Shown here: positions 9,552 to 17,695 of the stretch, one piece after another
Numbering within the stretch: the first letter of the stretch is position 1
How the letters are laid out: each line of letters begins with the position of its first letter
IMG/VR virus record: IMGVR_UViG_2562617151_000007
Span: 1-17,695 of that record
Origin: a virus
Lineage: Duplodnaviria > Heunggongvirae > Uroviricota > Caudoviricetes
Strand: one strand, 5' to 3'
DNA: 17,695 nt
Translations under genes and position numbers: made by a program
The notes under the pieces: model-generated
What the model saw: the letters and a program-made list of their open reading frames with translations, nothing else
What the model was told of the DNA's origin: nothing
Database searches by the model: none

Positions 9552-9830
9552 TCAGGCCTCGAAGAATTCGCCGTTCTTCGGGGCTTTTTCTTTTGTCAGC
9601 ATTCTGGCTACTTGCTTAGCCAGTTCCGCCAACTCCTCGTCTTCAACACCCCATTCAAGAACAGCAAGAAGCATTCCCATTTTGGGGATGAAGCTGTCTT
9701 TCCATCGCGAAATTTGCGATTCATTAATCCCTAACGCGTCGGCAACCTTTCGCTGACCACGTACAGCAATTCGATTCAGGATGTTGCTTGTAATTGCATT
9801 CGCTTTCTTGCGAGTACTTGTAAGTTGCAT
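9552..9830 (-). CDS. cII: CII transcriptional activator
   Basis: 92-aa ORF with [13 protein letters not shown]...[15 protein letters not shown], matching lambda CII ([25 protein letters not shown]). Positioned after cro and nutR. Confidence 0.85.
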
Positions 9831-9887
9831 ATGTAAGTATTTCCTTAACTAATAAGAAGTTATGCGCATCAACTTATGCGCGTTGTA

Positions 9888-9932
9888 TTCCCGCATTTCG
9901 GCGGGAATGAGGACCATGACTGTTAAAGAGCG
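9888..9932 (-). promoter_or_regulatory. nutR (boxA + boxB) N-utilisation site
   Basis: On the minus strand: boxA CGCTCTTTAACA (about 9921-9932), then boxB hairpin CCCGC-CGAAAT-GCGGG (about 9890-9905), between cro and cII. The boxB is identical to the one upstream of N. Confidence 0.6.
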
Positions 9933-9938
9933 GTGTTA

Positions 9939-10139
9939 CTATTTGTTTTTCTTGTTGCTTGGGAAAGGACGAACTTCCTCTCCAATCACACTGCCATCAG
10001 GCTTTACCGTAACCATAATGTTACGGCCTGCCAGAATGGCCTTGCTGATAGCGCACTGGATTACACCAAAGTCACTGGCTGCTTTAGCCTGTCCATGGAT
10101 TTTGGCGTAATCGGCAAGTGTCATTCGAATCATATGCAC
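9939..10139 (-). CDS. cro: Cro repressor
   Basis: 66-aa ORF; ...[49 protein letters not shown] closely parallels lambda Cro ([49 protein letters not shown]). Divergent from cI. Track start is GTG. Confidence 0.85.
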
Positions 10140-10164
10140 TCTCCGTTATTAACCATGAACAAAG

Positions 10165-10228
10165 AATACTACAGGTATTCAAAGCAATCAATACTCAGGG
10201 TATTTTTAGTTTAAGTACCTTAGCTATT
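10165..10228. promoter_or_regulatory. OR operator cluster (three 15-bp palindromes AATAC-N5-GTATT) with PR/PRM
   Basis: AATACTACAGGTATT (about 10165-10179), AATACTCAGGGTATT (about 10190-10204) and a degenerate AGTACCTTAGCTATT (about 10214-10228), spaced 24-25 bp centre to centre, between cro and cI. Confidence 0.6.
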
Positions 10229-10239
10229 AGAATTAAGCT

Positions 10240-10956
10240 ATGGAAAATAAAAAATCACTGACGACAGAACAGCTCGAAGACGCTAAGCGGCTTAAGGCTT
10301 TGTATGAGTCAAAAAAGAAAGAATTGGGAATAACCCAATACTCAATCGCTGATGAACTGGGTATCACCCAAGGAGCGGTAGGGCATTATCTTAATGGCAG
10401 AAACGCGCTAAACGTTGAGGTCGCATCTGGTTTTGCACGTTTGTTGCAAGTCTCAATTGCTGATTTTAGCCAGTCAATTGCTGCCAAGGTTGCAGAACAG
10501 GCAGAAAGCCTTAAGAGCGATGCCAACGTAAGGTATGCAGGGGAATACAGAGCAGGAAAGAGGTATCCGGTGTTAAGCAGTATCCAGGCTGGCTCGTGGT
10601 GTGAAGCATGCGAACCATACACCATTAAAGACATAGATGTTTGGCTTGAGTCTGACGCGCATATTCAAGGTAATGCGTTCTGGCTTAAAGTGGAAGGTGA
10701 TTCAATGACGGCACCGGTTGGGTTAAGCATTCCAGAGGGAACATTCGTTCTTTTCGATACCGGAAGGGAGGCGATCAACGGCAGCTTGGTCATAGCAAAA
10801 CTTTCTGACTCTAACGAAGCAACATTCAAGAAGCTGATAATCGACGGCGGAAATAAATACCTCAAGGGACTTAACCCTGCATGGCCTCTCGTGCCAATCA
10901 ATGGAAACTGCAAGATTATAGGCGTTGCAATTGAGACAAAACTAAGGCTGGTTTGA
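10240..10956 (+). CDS. cI: CI repressor (HTH N-terminal domain + LexA/S24-type autocleavage C-terminal domain)
   Basis: 238-aa ORF. N-terminus TTEQLEDAKRLKALYESKKKELGITQ parallels lambda CI ([26 protein letters not shown]); C-terminus has FWLKVEGDSMTAP and ATFKKLI matching the lambda CI cleavage domain. Confidence 0.9.
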   Translation: MENKKSLTTEQLEDAKRLKALYESKKKELGITQYSIADELGITQGAVGHYLNGRNALNVEVASGFARLLQVSIADFSQSIAAKVAEQAESLKSDANVRYAGEYRAGKRYPVLSSIQAGSWCEACEPYTIKDIDVWLESDAHIQGNAFWLKVEGDSMTAPVGLSIPEGTFVLFDTGREAINGSLVIAKLSDSNEATFKKLIIDGGNKYLKGLNPAWPLVPINGNCKIIGVAIETKLRLV

Positions 10957-10975
10957 TCACGCAAGGGGGGCGCTT

Positions 10976-11344
10976 ATGGTTGGAACCGCTATAGCAAGCT
11001 TTTTGGGGATGTTGGCAATCTCAACAATTTACGGCTTAGCGCATGCTTTTATTGCGAAATCTCTATCAGAAAAAATAAGCCAGGCTTGGGCGCATAGATC
11101 AGCTCGTTTCATGATTCTAGTGGTCATAGCAATACAAGGGATATCTGCATTTATCCTCTATGGATCAAGCTTATACCTGTTGTATCAAGGAGCGACATTT
11201 ACGCCTTACACCAGTGATTACGGAACTCTATACGATGGTAGTGAAGACATCTCTATGGCTTGGATCGTCTTTGGTTTATCTATGGCCGTGTCTGTTGTAG
11301 CAGACATCATTAAGGTAATTCTCGTCTTAACCTTCGCTGACTAA
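10976..11344 (+). CDS. Small integral membrane protein (3-4 predicted TM helices), unknown function
   Basis: 122-aa ORF 20 nt after cI on the same strand, with AAGGGGG RBS. Hydrophobic stretches AIASFLGMLAISTIYGLAHAFIA, FMILVVIAIQGISAFILYG, WIVFGLSMAVSVVADIIKVILVL. Occupies the rexAB position. Confidence 0.6.
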   Translation: MVGTAIASFLGMLAISTIYGLAHAFIAKSLSEKISQAWAHRSARFMILVVIAIQGISAFILYGSSLYLLYQGATFTPYTSDYGTLYDGSEDISMAWIVFGLSMAVSVVADIIKVILVLTFAD

Positions 11345-11430
11345 CCCATAATCCCGGCAGCAATAGCTATCGGGATCCACTTCACATATCCCGCATAAAA
11401 AGCACTGAACAAGCAGATACCGAAAAAATA

Positions 11431-11515
11431 AATATCCTTTGTATTCATTTGTTTATCATTATTTCATCAAAAATAAATACCTTGGGTATTTACACAATAA
11501 AATACCTACAGTATT
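11431..11515. promoter_or_regulatory. OL operator cluster with PL
   Basis: AATACCTTGGGTATT (about 11476-11490), AATACCTACAGTATT (about 11501-11515) and degenerate AATATCCTTTGTATT (about 11431-11445); same half-sites as OR. Confidence 0.55.
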
Positions 11516-11563
11516 CTTTAGCCATCAGCAGGACGCTGGAAGCCAAACGGAACAGATTGGCAG

Positions 11564-11603
11564 GCTCTTTAACATTGATGGGATTGTCCCGCCGAAATGC
11601 GGG
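11564..11603 (+). promoter_or_regulatory. nutL (boxA + boxB)
   Basis: boxA-like GCTCTTTAACA (about 11564-11574) followed by boxB CCCGC-CGAAAT-GCGGG (about 11588-11603), upstream of N. Same boxB as nutR. Confidence 0.6.
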
Positions 11604-11711
11604 AACCAAAGAGTAGTTGGCTTTGGGGTGACGTGAAGTGCAGCTGCACGACGGCAACCGGAAGATAAGCACCCGGCGCGTCACCGCCAAAGCCAATCAT
11701 CGGAGGTCAAC

Positions 11712-12008
11712 ATGATAATCGTTACTTATCTGGCTGATGATAACACCAGAAATCGCCGCAGAGCACGCAGACAGGCTCAACGTGAACAGGCAATGCAAGA
11801 ACAGCGACTTGCGCGAAAAATTGCGCTAAAGCTCTCTGGTTGCGTCAGAGCAGATAAAGCAGCATCACTCGGAAGCCTTCGCTGCAAGAAGGCAGAAGAA
11901 GTCGAGCGTAAACAGAACCGTATTTACTACCGCAAGCCACGCAGTGAAATGGGTGTGACTTGTGTTGGTCGCCAGAAAATGAAATTAGGCAGCAAACCAC
12001 TTATTTGA
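11712..12008 (+). CDS. N: N-type transcription antiterminator (arginine-rich motif)
   Basis: 98-aa ORF. N-terminal DNTRNRRRARRQAQREQA is the boxB-binding arginine-rich motif; C-terminal NRIYYRKPRSEMGVTCVGRQKMKLGSKPLI parallels lambda N (NQRTWYSKPGERGITCSGRQKIKGKSIPLI). GGAGG RBS. Confidence 0.85.
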   Translation: MIIVTYLADDNTRNRRRARRQAQREQAMQEQRLARKIALKLSGCVRADKAASLGSLRCKKAEEVERKQNRIYYRKPRSEMGVTCVGRQKMKLGSKPLI

Positions 12009-12016
12009 GGTGAGAT

Positions 12017-12487
12017 ATGACAAAATCATGGAGCGTACCTTTTCCTGAATCAGAAACTGAACATGATGGAATGCCTGTTTTCTGGAGATTCCAAGCGACA
12101 GTTGAAGAAGATGGAATCAAAATATTCGCACTTCAATATATAGCTTTTCATCAGACAGAGCATTATGCATGGTTGGTTCCTGCGCATTGGATTGTTGATT
12201 TTAAACCAGCACCAAATCAGTGGTTACAGGAATGGAAACAAAAGAGAAATAGATATGCAATTAAGAAAGTAGCAAAAAATGCAGAAAGATCTTTTGCATT
12301 CCCAACGAAGAAACTTGCCATTGAAAGTTTATTGCGCCGGAAGAAATACCATTTAATGAGAATAAAACAAGATTTGGCTGTTGTATCAACTCTTGTTGAT
12401 GGGATGAAAAATATTGATACATCAACACCAGATATTGAATATAACTTTGGACACAACCAAGAAACAGAAAATTGGGTATTTTATTAG
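12017..12487 (+). CDS. Hypothetical protein (156 aa), AT-rich cargo gene downstream of N
   Basis: ORF with GAGGTGAG RBS, 9 nt after the N stop. No family recognised. Visibly lower GC than neighbouring core genes; followed by a 9-bp-stem hairpin (about 12502-12529) and a terminator. Confidence 0.6.
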   Translation: MTKSWSVPFPESETEHDGMPVFWRFQATVEEDGIKIFALQYIAFHQTEHYAWLVPAHWIVDFKPAPNQWLQEWKQKRNRYAIKKVAKNAERSFAFPTKKLAIESLLRRKKYHLMRIKQDLAVVSTLVDGMKNIDTSTPDIEYNFGHNQETENWVFY

Positions 12488-12591
12488 TACGAATAAGCAC
12501 TGTGTATTCATTCCAACGAGTGAATACACGGAGCAATGTCGCTCGTAACTAAACAGGAGCCGACTTGTTCTGATTATTGGAAGTCTTCTTT

Positions 12592-12617
12592 GCCCTCCGA
12601 TGTGAGGGCTTTTTTAT
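12592..12617 (+). terminator. Rho-independent terminator
   Basis: GCCCTC-CGATGT-GAGGGC followed by TTTTTTAT, downstream of the 156-aa ORF. Confidence 0.6.
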
Positions 12618-12699
12618 ATGCATACCAATAACGCTTCACGAGAGGTGTTTATTCATGAGCGTAAACGCTGATTAATGAACGCAGTTGATAGGATATAAA

Positions 12700-13212
12700 A
12701 TGGCATTTATAAAGATTCTTGAATTAATTTCCCTAAGTGAGATTAATAATGTTGTCAAATATAACCCTATTTCTGGTGAGTTCACATGGCTAAAATCTTA
12801 TGGAGCAAGAAAGATAGGTGGAACTGCCGGAACAATAACAACAAGCGGCTACTTAAGGATTTTCATTAACGGAAGACACTATGCTGCACATAGACTTGCA
12901 TGGATTATCACTTTCGGTGTTGAGCCTGAAGGTATTATCGACCATATAAATGGCATAAAGACAGATAACAGAATTTGCAATCTGAGGCTTGCAACTTACT
13001 CACAGAATTCAATGAATAGTAAAATAAATACCCTCAACAAATCAGGTTGCAAAGGAGTCACATGGAAGAAGGAAAGTAGAAAGTGGGCTGCCTATGGGAA
13101 ATTAAACGGGAAGAAAAAACATCTAGGGTACTTTAATGAATTAGAAGATGCCAAAAAAGCTTACTGCGACTTTGCCAGAAAGCATCACGGCGAATTCTAC
13201 AGGAGCAAATAA
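12700..13212 (+). CDS. HNH homing-type endonuclease with C-terminal AP2-like DNA-binding domain
   Basis: Internal ATG with AGGA RBS (the track ORF starts at an upstream TTG). HNH motif AAHRLAWIITFGVEPEGIIDHINGIKTDNRICNLRLATYSQN; AP2-like GVTWKKESRKWAAYGKLNGKKKHLGYFNELEDAKKAY. AT-rich. Confidence 0.8.
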   Translation: MAFIKILELISLSEINNVVKYNPISGEFTWLKSYGARKIGGTAGTITTSGYLRIFINGRHYAAHRLAWIITFGVEPEGIIDHINGIKTDNRICNLRLATYSQNSMNSKINTLNKSGCKGVTWKKESRKWAAYGKLNGKKKHLGYFNELEDAKKAYCDFARKHHGEFYRSK

Positions 13213-13346
13213 TGAATGAATATATTTTAGCGGGTAGCGGCGTCATGTCCGCTTTCTACCCGCACGAATCTGAATTATCACGCCGAGTTAAACAATTAAT
13301 CAGAGCAGCAAAGAAACAACTGGAGGCGTTATGCGCAATGAAATAG
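13212..13346 (+). CDS. Small ORF (44 aa), early-left operon, unknown function
   Basis: ATG overlaps the HNH stop (TAATG); AGGAG RBS 6 nt upstream. First of a chain of overlapping small ORFs. Below track cut-off. Confidence 0.3.
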   Translation: MNEYILAGSGVMSAFYPHESELSRRVKQLIRAAKKQLEALCAMK

Positions 13347-13483
13347 CCATTAATCACCAGATGCTTCGTGCTGCACAGAACAAAGCAGTAATAGCCAGAT
13401 TTATTGGTGATTCCAAAATGTGGCTTGAAGCAAATAAAGCGATGAAATCAGCTATCAACCTTCCGTGGTATCGCAGGAAATGA
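13331..13483 (+). CDS. Small ORF (50 aa), unknown function
   Basis: GGAGG RBS 4 nt upstream of the ATG; overlaps the previous and next ORFs. MRNEIAINHQMLRAAQNKAVIARFIGDSKMWLEANKAMKSAINLPWYRRK. Confidence 0.3.
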   Translation: MRNEIAINHQMLRAAQNKAVIARFIGDSKMWLEANKAMKSAINLPWYRRK

Positions 13484-13587
13484 GTTTTACAGATAACTGG
13501 TCAGACGAAGAATTCATTCGTCAGATGAACAAAATGCTCAATCAGCACAAAGAACAGGAGAAAGATGATGATTCTGACTCTGAATGA
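13480..13587 (+). CDS. Small acidic ORF (35 aa), unknown function
   Basis: ATG overlaps the previous stop (ATGA). MSFTDNWSDEEFIRQMNKMLNQHKEQEKDDDSDSE. Weak call. Confidence 0.25.
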   Translation: MSFTDNWSDEEFIRQMNKMLNQHKEQEKDDDSDSE

Positions 13588-13876
13588 TAAGCGTGAAATA
13601 TCGCAAATAATCGCAAGTTTTACTGATGAAGATTACGAGCGAATCAACAGTGAAGTTGATCGCCTCTGCAAACGTTGCGACCCAATAAGCGAAATGCTTC
13701 GCTCATATAAACCAGATGAACACACTAAGGACGCTATCGACTGGCTGGAAGATGATGACTGTAACTATCAGGAAAAAGCCGCTGAATGGTTCTGGGATGC
13801 AATAACCGAAAGAGTTAAGGCTGAATATGCCTTCGCAATATTTAAACGCAGACACATTTTTGGAGAAGCTGCATGA
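13565..13876 (+). CDS. Hypothetical protein (103 aa) immediately upstream of recT; possible host-nuclease inhibitor by position only
   Basis: ORF with AGGAG RBS; its stop overlaps the recT start (ATGA). Sits where lambdoid phages place gam/abc-type RecBCD inhibitors; no sequence family recognised. Confidence 0.5.
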   Translation: MMILTLNDKREISQIIASFTDEDYERINSEVDRLCKRCDPISEMLRSYKPDEHTKDAIDWLEDDDCNYQEKAAEWFWDAITERVKAEYAFAIFKRRHIFGEAA

Positions 13877-14775
13877 GCAATATCGTTGAATTCGTTAAAC
13901 AGCAAGAGCAGTTATTCTGCGGAGCATTGACTGAACAGACGGTGACATGGGCTAAGGAAAGCCAGTTTGCAATTCAGTATTTCCAGAAAAACGATTACCT
14001 GGCTAAAACAGCACTGGCAAATCCAACCAGCGCACAGAACGCCATCATCAATGTTGCGGCGATCGGCATCACCTTAAACCCGGCCAGCAAACTGGCTTAT
14101 CTGGTTCCTCGCGACGGCATGGTGTGCCTTGATATCAGTTACATGGGATTACTTCACCTTGCACAGTCGACAGGATCAATTAAGTGGGGGCAATGCAAAC
14201 TGGTGTACTCAAACGACACCTATGAATCAAACGGCCTTGATTCAGCACCAACCCACAAATACAACGCATTTGGTAAGCGAGGCTCTATTGTTGGTGGTTA
14301 TTGTACGGTTAAAACAGCAGATGGTGACTACCTCACTGAAGAAATGAGTCTGGCAGAAATTAAAGCTGTGGAAGCAACGAGCAAGGCAAAGAATGGACCG
14401 TGGAAGACATTCTGGGAAGAGATGGCGCGTAAAACAATAGTTAAACGCGCCAGCAAATACTGGCCTAAAGCCCAGCGACTGGATAATGCCATTCACCTGC
14501 TTAACGAAGATGAAGGTATGCATCAGGAACCAGTTATGCCGCACAAATCAGAGGAAGATATCCGCGAAGATGAACGGAAACGCCAGCAGGAAATTATGGA
14601 AAAAGCACAACTTCTTTGTGATGAAATGGCTCAGGCAGAAAACATGGATGATTTGAAGCGATATTTTGCAGAAGCATATCGCCTGACATCTGGAATGAAA
14701 TTGCAGCAGAACGTACAAGCCATTTACATAGAATGCAAAGCGAAACTGGAGGTTGCCAGTGAGCAAACTGTATGA
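13873..14775 (+). CDS. recT: RecT-family single-strand annealing recombinase
   Basis: 300-aa ORF; GPWKTFWEEMARKTIVKRASKYWP parallels Rac RecT (GPWVTHWEEMAKKTAIRRLFKYLP). Confidence 0.85.
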   Translation: MSNIVEFVKQQEQLFCGALTEQTVTWAKESQFAIQYFQKNDYLAKTALANPTSAQNAIINVAAIGITLNPASKLAYLVPRDGMVCLDISYMGLLHLAQSTGSIKWGQCKLVYSNDTYESNGLDSAPTHKYNAFGKRGSIVGGYCTVKTADGDYLTEEMSLAEIKAVEATSKAKNGPWKTFWEEMARKTIVKRASKYWPKAQRLDNAIHLLNEDEGMHQEPVMPHKSEEDIREDERKRQQEIMEKAQLLCDEMAQAENMDDLKRYFAEAYRLTSGMKLQQNVQAIYIECKAKLEVASEQTV

Positions 14776-15241
14776 AATTGCCAATGAATACGCAAAATTG
14801 ATGGATTCAGATTTAGAACCAGAGATGATTGCTGACACAATAGAAGGCATGGAAGGAGAATTTACCGATAAAATAGAGCAACTTCTTTCCGTCATTAAAA
14901 ATGAATCTGGTTATGCTGAACGCCTCAAGGAAGAGGCAAAGTCACTGAATGAGCGAGCCGCAGTAATTCAAAATAAGATTGACAGCATCAAATCATATAT
15001 AGCGTCATCGCTTGAAATGGTTGGCAAGAAAAATATTCGAGCAGGTATTCACCAGGTAACAATCCGCAAACCGTCAGAAACTGTAGAAATCATCGACTCA
15101 AGCGCCCTTCCTCCTGAATACCTTGAGTTTGAAACGACAATTAAAGCCGACAAACTGGCAATCAAGCACCAACTAAAAGCAGGAATAAATATTCCCGGTG
15201 CTCAACTCAAGGTTGGGAAACCTTCACTTCTTATCAAATAA
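14759..15241 (+). CDS. Gp157-family protein (recombination-module accessory)
   Basis: Likely GTG start 7 nt after GGAGG, overlapping the recT stop (track starts at TTG 14753). N-terminal KLYEIANEYAKLMD and C-terminal GAQLKVGKPSLLIK resemble the Siphovirus Gp157 family often found beside recT. Confidence 0.55.
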   Translation: MSKLYEIANEYAKLMDSDLEPEMIADTIEGMEGEFTDKIEQLLSVIKNESGYAERLKEEAKSLNERAAVIQNKIDSIKSYIASSLEMVGKKNIRAGIHQVTIRKPSETVEIIDSSALPPEYLEFETTIKADKLAIKHQLKAGINIPGAQLKVGKPSLLIK

Positions 15242-15252
15242 CGGTATCGCCT

Positions 15253-15567
15253 ATGAAAAAGACTCCATGGGAGAAATGGGAAGTCGATTTCTTGCGCGAA
15301 GTAGCGGCGACAATGCCAGTTGAAGTTATCGCTGAAAAACTGGAAAGGACTGAAAAAGCAGTAATGGCAAAAGCAACAAGGATTGGCGCTGACATTGTTA
15401 GCCGACTTCGTGGAAGACGATGGACAAGAGCCGAAGTATCACTTTTCGGTAAGTTCTCCGCAGAAGAAATAGCAATTGCAACCTGCCGATCAATTTATTC
15501 AGTAAGAGCTATGCGATACAAGCTAAAAAAACTCGATGAAGAAAGAGCAGGCATACGAATAAATTAA
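15253..15567 (+). CDS. Hypothetical protein with two tandem helix-rich W-x-E/A repeats (possible DNA-binding)
   Basis: 104-aa ORF with internal duplication ([32 protein letters not shown] / [31 protein letters not shown]). No family recognised. Confidence 0.5.
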
Positions 15568-15583
15568 CAAAGAGGAATTAATC

Positions 15584-15751
15584 ATGAGAGGGCTTGCATA
15601 CAATCCCGGCATTCTTCCGGCAGAAATGATTATTCGCCAACGCGTAAAGCCAATGCCATCGAGAGAGGAATTGCTTAAGAGAAATAGTTTCGGTTCTGTT
15701 AATGACAACAAATATCTGAATGCGATGTTGCGTAAAGGAGGCAAGCAGTGA
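15584..15751 (+). CDS. Small ORF (55 aa), unknown function
   Basis: AGAGGA RBS 7 nt upstream of the ATG; stop overlaps the GTG start of the next ORF. Below track cut-off. Confidence 0.35.
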
Positions 15752-16047
15752 GTGTATGTCTTATTGATAAACGTCGACGTGGGCAACAAATACCATCTGT
15801 TGGAATGCCGAATCACACATGGTTTTGCGTACTTGATATCGATGGTATGGATGCGTTGGTTGACACTCGTCATTACTGCGATACCGCAACAGCTACTCCG
15901 GCGAAAGCAAAGAAAATGGCTGCTCTGATAGAAAACTGGACTCCACCTGATGGTTGGTGCAATGGGAATGATCGAGATTGGCACGAAAAAATGAAGGGCT
16001 ATATCTGCGATTTTTTACGTAAATGCAACGGCTTCAGGGTGATGTGA
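15748..16047 (+). CDS. Hypothetical protein (99 aa)
   Basis: GTG start overlapping the preceding stop; Cys/His/Trp-rich; no family recognised. Typical early-left lambdoid accessory gene by position. Confidence 0.5.
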
Positions 16048-16048
16048 T

Positions 16049-16456
16049 ATGAACAAGATTGACTATCAGGCACTGCGTGAAGCGGCAGAGAAAGCCGGTG
16101 AAGATAAGTGGCAGGCTAAAAAAATAAATGGTGATTTTTTCGTTATTCGTCACGGTAGTTATACAAGACAGCATGGCTACACATCGTATCAACCCATTGC
16201 GGAGATTGATTGTAAGCAAGTCCGGGATTTTGTTGCCAAGGCTAATCCGGCTACCGTGCTGGAATTACTGGATGAACTGGAAGCAGCAAAAAAGCGCATT
16301 GCAGAACTGAAAGCGCGGGAAATACTGCTCCCGGAACGTAGCAGCATGCTTCATCGAACAGATTTTCACGATGATTACCAAACGGTAATGGCATACAAAG
16401 TTTCTGAAGTCATCGATGCAATCCGCGCTACTGGCATTCGCATCAAAGGAGAGTGA
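16049..16456 (+). CDS. Ead/Ea22-like protein
   Basis: 135-aa ORF; coiled-coil segment ANPATVLELLDELEAAKKRIAELKARE is characteristic of lambdoid Ead/Ea22-family proteins. Confidence 0.6.
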   Translation: MNKIDYQALREAAEKAGEDKWQAKKINGDFFVIRHGSYTRQHGYTSYQPIAEIDCKQVRDFVAKANPATVLELLDELEAAKKRIAELKAREILLPERSSMLHRTDFHDDYQTVMAYKVSEVIDAIRATGIRIKGE

Positions 16457-17494: not shown

Positions 17495-17695
17495 ATGCAA
17501 CACGAACTACAGCCTGATTCACTGGTTGATTTGAAATTCATCATGGCCGATACTGGCTTCGGTAAAACCTTCATCTATGACCGGATTAAGTCCGGCGACC
17601 TGCCAAAAGCCAAAGTTATCCACGGGCGAGCAAGATGGTTATATCGTGACCATTGTGAATTCAAAAATAAGCTCTTAAGCCGCGCCAATGGGTAA
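17495..17695 (+). CDS. torI: Excisionase / recombination directionality factor, TorI-like (winged-helix, AlpA/Xis family)
   Basis: 66-aa ORF MQHELQPDSLVDLKFIMADTGFGKTFIYDRIKSGDLPKAKVIHGRARWLYRDHCEFKNKLLSRANG, recalled as near-identical to E. coli TorI. At the opposite end of the element from the integrase. Confidence 0.8.
   Translation: MQHELQPDSLVDLKFIMADTGFGKTFIYDRIKSGDLPKAKVIHGRARWLYRDHCEFKNKLLSRANG

Follow-up and report, generated by a model that had tools for sequence, protein, structure and literature searches.

The region behind the antiterminator gene N in the PL operon of lambdoid phages is a known site of accessory genes. Known occupants of this slot are lambda Ral (PF11058), P22 gp17 (PF27050) and the SieB-type exclusion proteins, all of which show accessory, mosaic behaviour. 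In the lambda map, ral lies downstream of tL1. In HK97 the gene that directly follows N is gene 45, and close homologues occupy the same position in H-19B and the Stx phages. The family to which gp45 belongs, PHROG 1636, is labelled 'unknown function', and every source annotates its members as hypothetical. A literature search on HK97 gp45, on the accession numbers and on PL-operon accessory genes found nothing relevant. Another group of elements to be considered here is that of the free-standing HNH_3-AP2 homing endonucleases (PHROG 99), and the T4 Mob/Seg-type intergenic endonucleases serve as the working analogy for the HNH gene described below.

We analyzed a DNA stretch of 17,695 nucleotides (IMGVR_UViG_2562617151_000007, here called the window), which represents the early region of a lambdoid prophage of the P22/HK620 type; the prophage itself is a defective P22/HK620-like lambdoid. 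The PL operon lies on the + strand of the window, and the features from cI to kil are as follows.

10240-10956, cI gene, GC 45.7%
10976-11344, ORF of a 122-aa multi-pass membrane protein directly after cI and upstream of PL (phrog_6534, unknown function)
about 11489-11517, PL promoter-like site from a consensus scan
11712-12008, + strand, N-like antiterminator gene, 98 aa (phrog_271, E 4.7e-35; weak Pfam N_peptide match), with a TGA stop at 12006-12008
12017-12487, + strand, HK97 gp45-family gene, 156 aa (phrog_1636, E 1.4e-111, all 156 residues aligned with all 156 profile positions)
12497-12650, + strand, conserved non-coding linker, common to loci with different flanking genes; a recurrent mosaic junction
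12502-12529, + strand, perfect 12-bp hairpin, GTGTATTCATTC-CAAC-GAGTGAATACAC, without a T-run, identical in HK97 and CP151071
12592-12616, + strand, intrinsic terminator and putative tL1 equivalent, GCCCTC-N6-GAGGGC followed by a T-run
12640-13229, + strand, HNH cassette, delimited against HNH-less alleles by alignments with HK97, H-19B and CP127252
12700-13212, + strand, HNH_3 and AP2-like endonuclease gene, 170 aa, its stop overlapping the cIII start (TAATG)
13212-13346, + strand, cIII (Pfam cIII, E 6.8e-26)
13331-13483, + strand, kil (Pfam Lambda_Kil, E 1.7e-20), the conserved right-hand neighbour; the shared block ends at 13529

Downstream of kil there are a PHROG 3486 ORF, RecT and gp157, then ea-type ORFs and finally an excisionase-like gene whose end coincides with the final base of the window. 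Over window bases 9700-16212 the sequence is 100% identical to that of JH660541.1, an NCBI assembly contig, which shows the same gp45-HNH order.

A first-pass annotation had described the two genes between N and cIII as an AT-rich cargo pair. This observation is confirmed, and its interpretation is partly supported: the idea of an accessory slot and that of a homing endonuclease hold, while the idea that the two genes were transferred together fails. The 156-aa ORF does begin close behind N, with a spacer of 8 nt and its ATG at 12017, the ninth base after the N stop. The strong ribosome binding site that had been claimed can be read directly as a GAGGTGA Shine-Dalgarno sequence at 12007-12013. 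Both ORFs are AT-rich, as had been stated, with GC contents of 35.2% (156-aa ORF, GC3 of 25.5%) and 37.2% (HNH gene) vs 43.1% for the window and 47.8% for N, and in a windowed GC analysis their composition is distinguishable from N, cI and the window average. Only 0.8% of all 471-nt windows in the stretch are as AT-rich as the 156-aa ORF, and only 1.6% of the 1196-nt windows reach the AT content of the pair; the sole other stretch of this kind is the acyltransferase/tailspike region at about 1770-2750. The AT-richness of the pair is real, yet it is not unique within the window.

The 156-aa protein shows 98.1% amino acid identity over an equal length to HK97 gp45 (NP_037731; tblastn) and 99% identity to an unannotated ORF of H-19B. 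It had been called unrecognised, which holds for its function and does not hold for its family, since it is a full-length member of PHROG 1636. The likeness to HK97, H-19B and the Stx phages extends beyond the protein (98-99% identical, same length) to the position directly after N and to the same hairpin/terminator block downstream. The locus differs from HK97 in two respects: there nothing separates the terminator block from the cIII leader, where the window has the HNH cassette, and the N gene of the window is of a different type except for its last codons. The gp45-like gene was found in 88 phage records, mostly of Shiga-toxin phages and including HK97, H-19B, EDL933-Stx and Min27, and in 598 of 5426 complete E. 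coli genomes (about 11%), which hold 834 copies, with up to four per genome. The dN/dS ratio is 0.098 between the window and HK97 and 0.070 between Brenneria and Pectobacterium, and 40 alignment columns are invariant across six genera; the low dN/dS and the invariant columns together indicate that the ORF is a real protein-coding gene. In Brenneria and Pectobacterium the gene is AT-poorer than in E. coli, yet its GC content is still under the local level.

The hairpin and the terminator that had been placed between the two ORFs are both present, at 12502-12529 and 12592-12616. By pattern match, the terminator has a 6-bp stem with five GC pairs followed by TTTTTT, and the HK97 record annotates the same site as a putative terminator. 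It is the sole terminator-like site on the + strand within 11300-13700, and the first one on that strand downstream of PL. The linker block has an RNA fold z-score of -3.8, and an Rfam search of the hairpin and terminator block gave no match. The linker is 99% identical in loci where the upstream gene is Nmad5, another HNH gene or an 84-aa ORF, and in CP151071 a DUF2528 gene is inserted into it, between the gp45-like and HNH genes. Recurrent junctions in the relatives fall at 11955/11989/12001, 12497, 12615-12617/12650, 13230 and 13529, and the last 20-50 nt of N are part of the recurrent left junction of the gp45-like module. It was also seen that 11989-12019 (the N end, the ribosome binding site and the ATG) and 12497-12650 recur at module boundaries with differing flanking genes; judged from the alignments, these two patches look like homology patches for mosaic exchange.

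The HNH gene probably starts at ATG 12700, which has AGGA 8 nt upstream and is the start used in RefSeq relatives, and not at the mechanically called TTG 12685. Its product had been labelled HNH-AP2. The HNH_3 part of this label stands well above the Pfam cut-off (E 1.7e-15, 56.8 bits, cut-off 24.8), while the AP2 match is weak (E 1.1e-6) and at 29.2 bits lies under the cut-off of 33.3; PF00847 (AP2) is precomputed for the cluster representative and for many homologues. The protein matches phrog_99 (E 1.5e-68), and at E <1e-5 it has 705 homologues, most of them with PF13392 and PF00847; a PDB sequence search gave no relative. Based on the translation, the HNH motif residues (D81-H82, N90/N94 and N103) are intact.

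The comparison with HNH-less alleles shows precisely where this gene sits. The alleles of HK97, H-19B and CP127252 share a 60-bp stretch that consists of the cIII leader and ATGATGCACTTTCAGCTC. The HNH cassette replaces these 60 bp, including the first six cIII codons, and ends in ATGAATGAATATATTTTA. Over these six codons (13212-13229), 10 of 18 nt differ, and the encoded residues are MNEYIL with the HNH gene vs MMHFQL without it. Within the complete E. coli set the cassette-cIII junction sequence occurs in exactly the 10 HNH-positive genomes and nowhere else, and at every HNH locus examined cIII follows directly with the TAATG overlap, and then kil. This pattern is the one expected of a free-standing homing endonuclease that targets the empty allele, and the alignments point in the direction that the first-pass annotation had proposed for this gene, with one fixed site and a presence/absence polymorphism. 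Like the known homing endonucleases, and PHROG 99 members of the HNH_3-AP2 type in particular, the protein has an HNH_3 motif and a weakly scoring AP2-like C-terminus, and its gene lies between conserved genes, is present or absent at one site and has an altered flank in the carrier allele. Its setting differs from theirs: the gene belongs to the early-left operon in temperate lambdoid prophages, and its translation is coupled to that of cIII.

A possible course of events is that the HNH gene took the place of the 60-bp leader and of six cIII codons and became coupled in translation to cIII. Placed downstream of the terminator, the gene should need N for its expression. The endonuclease would then spread by cleaving the cIII-leader allele without HNH in phages that share the same cell, after which the cassette would be copied in by recombinational repair, and because the 5' end of cIII is rewritten, the HNH-carrying allele would resist its own cutting. 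Another explanation is that the gene encodes a fixed accessory nuclease, one that is of use to the phage or is in decay, and is merely inherited together with one cIII-kil allele. The strict linkage to one 5' allele of cIII could be explained by such a co-inherited cIII-kil module, the copies in the 10 of 5426 complete E. coli genomes are 99-100% identical, the AP2 match is sub-threshold, and the target site is still putative. However, the same cassette is found in phages that differ in their immunity, N and recombination modules (three recombination-module backgrounds, with varying immunity modules), its boundaries are sharp against a conserved empty-site allele, HNH_3 with AP2 is a common architecture of free-standing endonucleases, and the motif residues are preserved. 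We regard a fixed, non-homing nuclease as rather unlikely.

It had also been suggested that the HNH gene may have brought its neighbour with it, so that the two genes would form one cargo unit carried into the slot by a homing endonuclease. The two genes are indeed adjacent and similarly AT-rich, and they stand in the same order in JH660541.1, one assembly that is identical to the window. Yet the distribution refutes a common unit. Among 2310 E. coli genomes that match the region, 598 have the 156-aa gene and 10 have the HNH gene, a 60-fold gap, and both genes show presence/absence polymorphism across the relatives, which agrees with the earlier view of them as accessory cargo and not core. 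The HNH gene has at least seven kinds of left neighbour (DUF5484, P22 gp17-like, gp45-like, Nmad5, a 52-aa ORF, DUF2528 and a second HNH gene), while gp45 is present without HNH in HK97, H-19B and the Stx phages and is placed next to xis-int in Pectobacterium and Brenneria prophages. In addition, a terminator block that is common to unrelated loci separates the two genes, and it is here that CP151071 has its DUF2528 insertion. Transfer as a single unit is hardly credible on these grounds. The difference in frequency, the varied left neighbours of the HNH gene and its constant cIII neighbour lead to the view that the two genes are separate modules, gp45-like at 12017-12487 and HNH at 12640-13229. 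We consider it somewhat probable that the hypervariable N-cIII slot holds here two unrelated and independently mobile accessory modules, one for a gp45-like binding protein of lytic growth and one for an HNH homing endonuclease. As a side observation, at two loci (L005 in CP019243, 2394-3573, and L029, 2483-2899) a second and different HNH_3 gene of 138 aa lies directly upstream of the first as a tandem pair.

That the slot after N carries accessory genes, as had been pointed out for lambda and P22, is seen in the relatives, where the positions between N and cIII are occupied by ral, P22 gp17-like genes, genes annotated as 'superinfection exclusion protein', Nmad5, DUF2528, DUF5484 and other small ORFs. 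In phi367 the gp45 homologue comes behind ral, in H-19B it comes before gp17, and Ral and P22 gp17 type models do match these neighbouring genes in the relatives' loci. The 156-aa protein shares the slot and the accessory, mosaic behaviour of Ral, gp17 and the SieB-type proteins and differs from them in size and predicted fold, and it has no sequence match to them: a Pfam scan gave no family at E <=0.1, so neither PF11058 nor PF27050 was found, and there was no match to a SieB model. An NCBIfam scan likewise gave no family, and the only hit in PADLOC-DB, to Cas1_II (E 0.01, 13 bits), is at chance level.

The protein can be placed in a wider family. A profile search of 1.8 billion representatives gave 88 matches at E <1e-3, which belong to a family of proteins of 130-165 aa without a Pfam domain and only in 'unknown' PHROGs (1636, 13631 and 25384). 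Of 76 wider-family members 66 also match phrog_13631, and a reciprocal tblastn confirms the link at E 1e-4. The alignment shows a shared motif, Y/F-R ... G ... H-E/Q-T ... K..K ... R-F-A-F-x-T-K-x-x-A ... R-K. The more distant members come from Pseudomonas, Vibrio, Erwinia, Rhizobium and Bacteroidota phages. The gp45-like protein is one branch of this broad family of solo early phage proteins. Two of the wider-family matches, P0062 and P0080, were discarded as repeat artefacts, and domain fusions were sought as a clue to function in a profile search of 5.8 billion proteins, in which none was informative.

Structure prediction, which had been proposed for this protein, gave a confident model and no match to a solved structure. 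The AlphaFold2 (AF2) model was built from a 76-sequence alignment (pLDDT 96, pTM 0.83) and supersedes a poor first run with 21 close homologues (pLDDT 59). The predicted fold is a compact alpha+beta domain with three long beta-strands (19-30, 33-46 and 50-55), two short helices, a fourth strand (83-86) and a helix of 33 residues (98-130). A fold search in BFVD with this model gave 13 matches at E <1e-3, all of them uncharacterised phage proteins, from Erwinia, Achromobacter, Sinorhizobium, Rhizobium, Delftia, Tenacibaculum and Cellulophaga phages; the same model gave no match in the PDB, and sequence searches of the PDB yielded chance matches only, whether the single protein or the profile was the query. 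Residues 61-130 are strongly basic, with a pI >10 for both segments 61-97 and 98-130, while the N-terminus and the tail are acidic. A conserved basic centre is formed by K84, K87, R91, R107, K109 and R115. The near-universal residues G33, T47, K87 and A101 could be purely structural. A likeness of the RSFAFPTKKLA segment to the AP2 strand-helix was considered and rejected (hhalign probability 2%).

The position of the gene gives an indication of when it would be expressed. Unlike lambda ral, it lies upstream of the terminator. Since it comes before the first terminator of the PL operon, it should be made together with N, immediately and without antitermination. In the consensus scan there is no promoter-like site between PL and the gene, and without a promoter of its own and with a start 8 nt past N it should be silent in a repressed lysogen. 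Such silence speaks against a lysogen function of the rex/sieB type and for a role in lytic growth. The immediate-early expression is deduced here from consensus scans.

One hypothesis is that the protein is a prophage exclusion or defence factor like sieB, rex or P22 gp17, which shields the lysogen. The relatives do carry exclusion-type genes in this slot, and the gp45-like gene is AT-rich, moron-like and patchy in distribution. Against this stands the expected repression in the lysogen that follows from the position behind N with no promoter-like site after PL. PADLOC gives no match, and the relatives by fold and by profile are found in early clusters of many phages. Some of these phages, such as the N4-like phiAxp-3, are virulent. 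A lysogen-shielding role is quite improbable by these observations.

Another possibility is that the protein regulates the phage's own early transcription, replication or recombination, as an accessory factor that binds DNA or RNA. This would fit the conserved basic helix face and the immediate-early gene position adjoining N, and elsewhere the gene is found among genes for RecE, helicases and DNA-binding proteins. When 12 contexts were compared, the homologues were seen in early operons with no constant partner gene. In phi367 the gene comes after ral, Brenneria and Pectobacterium prophages have it ahead of xis-int and not beside N, and Vibrio and Pseudomonas phages have it close to genes for RecE or a helicase. 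As the Pectobacterium and Brenneria copies adjoin xis-int, the coupling to N is not general. The gene is missing from roughly three in four of the relatives that are otherwise collinear, which makes it dispensable, it has no constant neighbouring gene or site, and it moves between phages with differing N, immunity and recombination modules. For these reasons a regulator of the phage's own programme appears doubtful.

We suggest that the gp45-like protein may bind nucleic acid or else an acidic protein of the host and so act in lytic growth; it is charge and conservation that point to nucleic-acid binding. It would be a host-takeover or counter-defence factor and not an exclusion protein expressed by the lysogen. 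The expression logic and the solo early contexts place takeover or counter-defence first and a regulator of the phage's own programme second, both with low confidence. Our tentative proposal is that the superfamily represents a new immediate-early class, with a fold absent from solved structures, whose members may neutralise a defence or seize a host nucleic-acid process by direct binding. A comparison can be made with T4 MotB, a small early phage protein of the type that binds DNA non-specifically or binds host factors (PMC7827196). The gp45-like protein would resemble it in predicted early expression, small size, basic character and dispensability, as a functional analogy that implies no homology.

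These results do not overturn the current understanding, and they refine the map of a known hypervariable region. In HK97 and in many Stx-converting phages, a gene that is probably among the first to be transcribed is unnamed and has neither a Pfam family nor a structural relative. The confident model, the defined superfamily and the tractable gene 45 of HK97 make it a cheap and well-posed target for counter-defence or takeover screens; the family is already catalogued, though uncharacterised, and it is a reasonable, not an exceptional target. The HNH cassette offers a clear natural case of a homing-type endonuclease located in the early operon of a temperate lambdoid, and its empty site, the cIII leader, is exactly delimited; the recurrent junctions show the reshuffling of the slot.

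Several further observations concern the prophage. Compared with one relative, the O-like replication gene (8713-9378) is cut short at about 8730, and it abuts a gene at 6724-8565, which encodes a full-length P22 gp16-like DNA transfer (ejection) protein (phrog_770, E 7e-280); an earlier identification of this ORF as a primase was dropped. From the truncated O-like gene and the adjoining gp16-like gene it follows that the prophage lacks the genes for P/primase, nin, Q, lysis, terminase and head. The defective prophage has kept int, the tailspike, immI and the entire PL operon. Because the prophage is defective, neither the gp45-like gene nor the HNH gene need be under current selection here.

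The window starts at the exact ATG of an IntS-like integrase gene (1-1158) and ends at the exact stop of a TorI-like excisionase gene (17495-17695). In 17 E. coli genomes the integrase and TorI-like excisionase genes are about 250 nt apart. In prophages such as KplE1 and Sf6, attP lies between xis and int; if this is so here, by analogy, the window would span the prophage completely, from int to xis.

The 122-aa membrane ORF behind cI is conserved with this type of cI in other genomes. The position after cI holds rexAB in lambda, and in other phages it holds exclusion genes of the sieB or BstA type that are expressed in the lysogen. A P22-type immI region is also present: the sar antisense RNA (Rfam RF00262, 65.6 bits) is found within 5389-6699, Ant (Bro-N and P22_AR_C) is at 4509-5387 on the - strand, and Mnt/Arc at 5708-5962 is followed by an ORF of the Rap1a family (type VI amidase immunity-like; 5959-6294) and by a 129-aa ORF (6310-6699). 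Several E. coli genomes carry 5400-7100 with 100% identity. At 1351-4408, a hexapeptide-repeat acyltransferase, which may be an O-antigen acetylase, adjoins a tailspike with a P22 head-binding domain.
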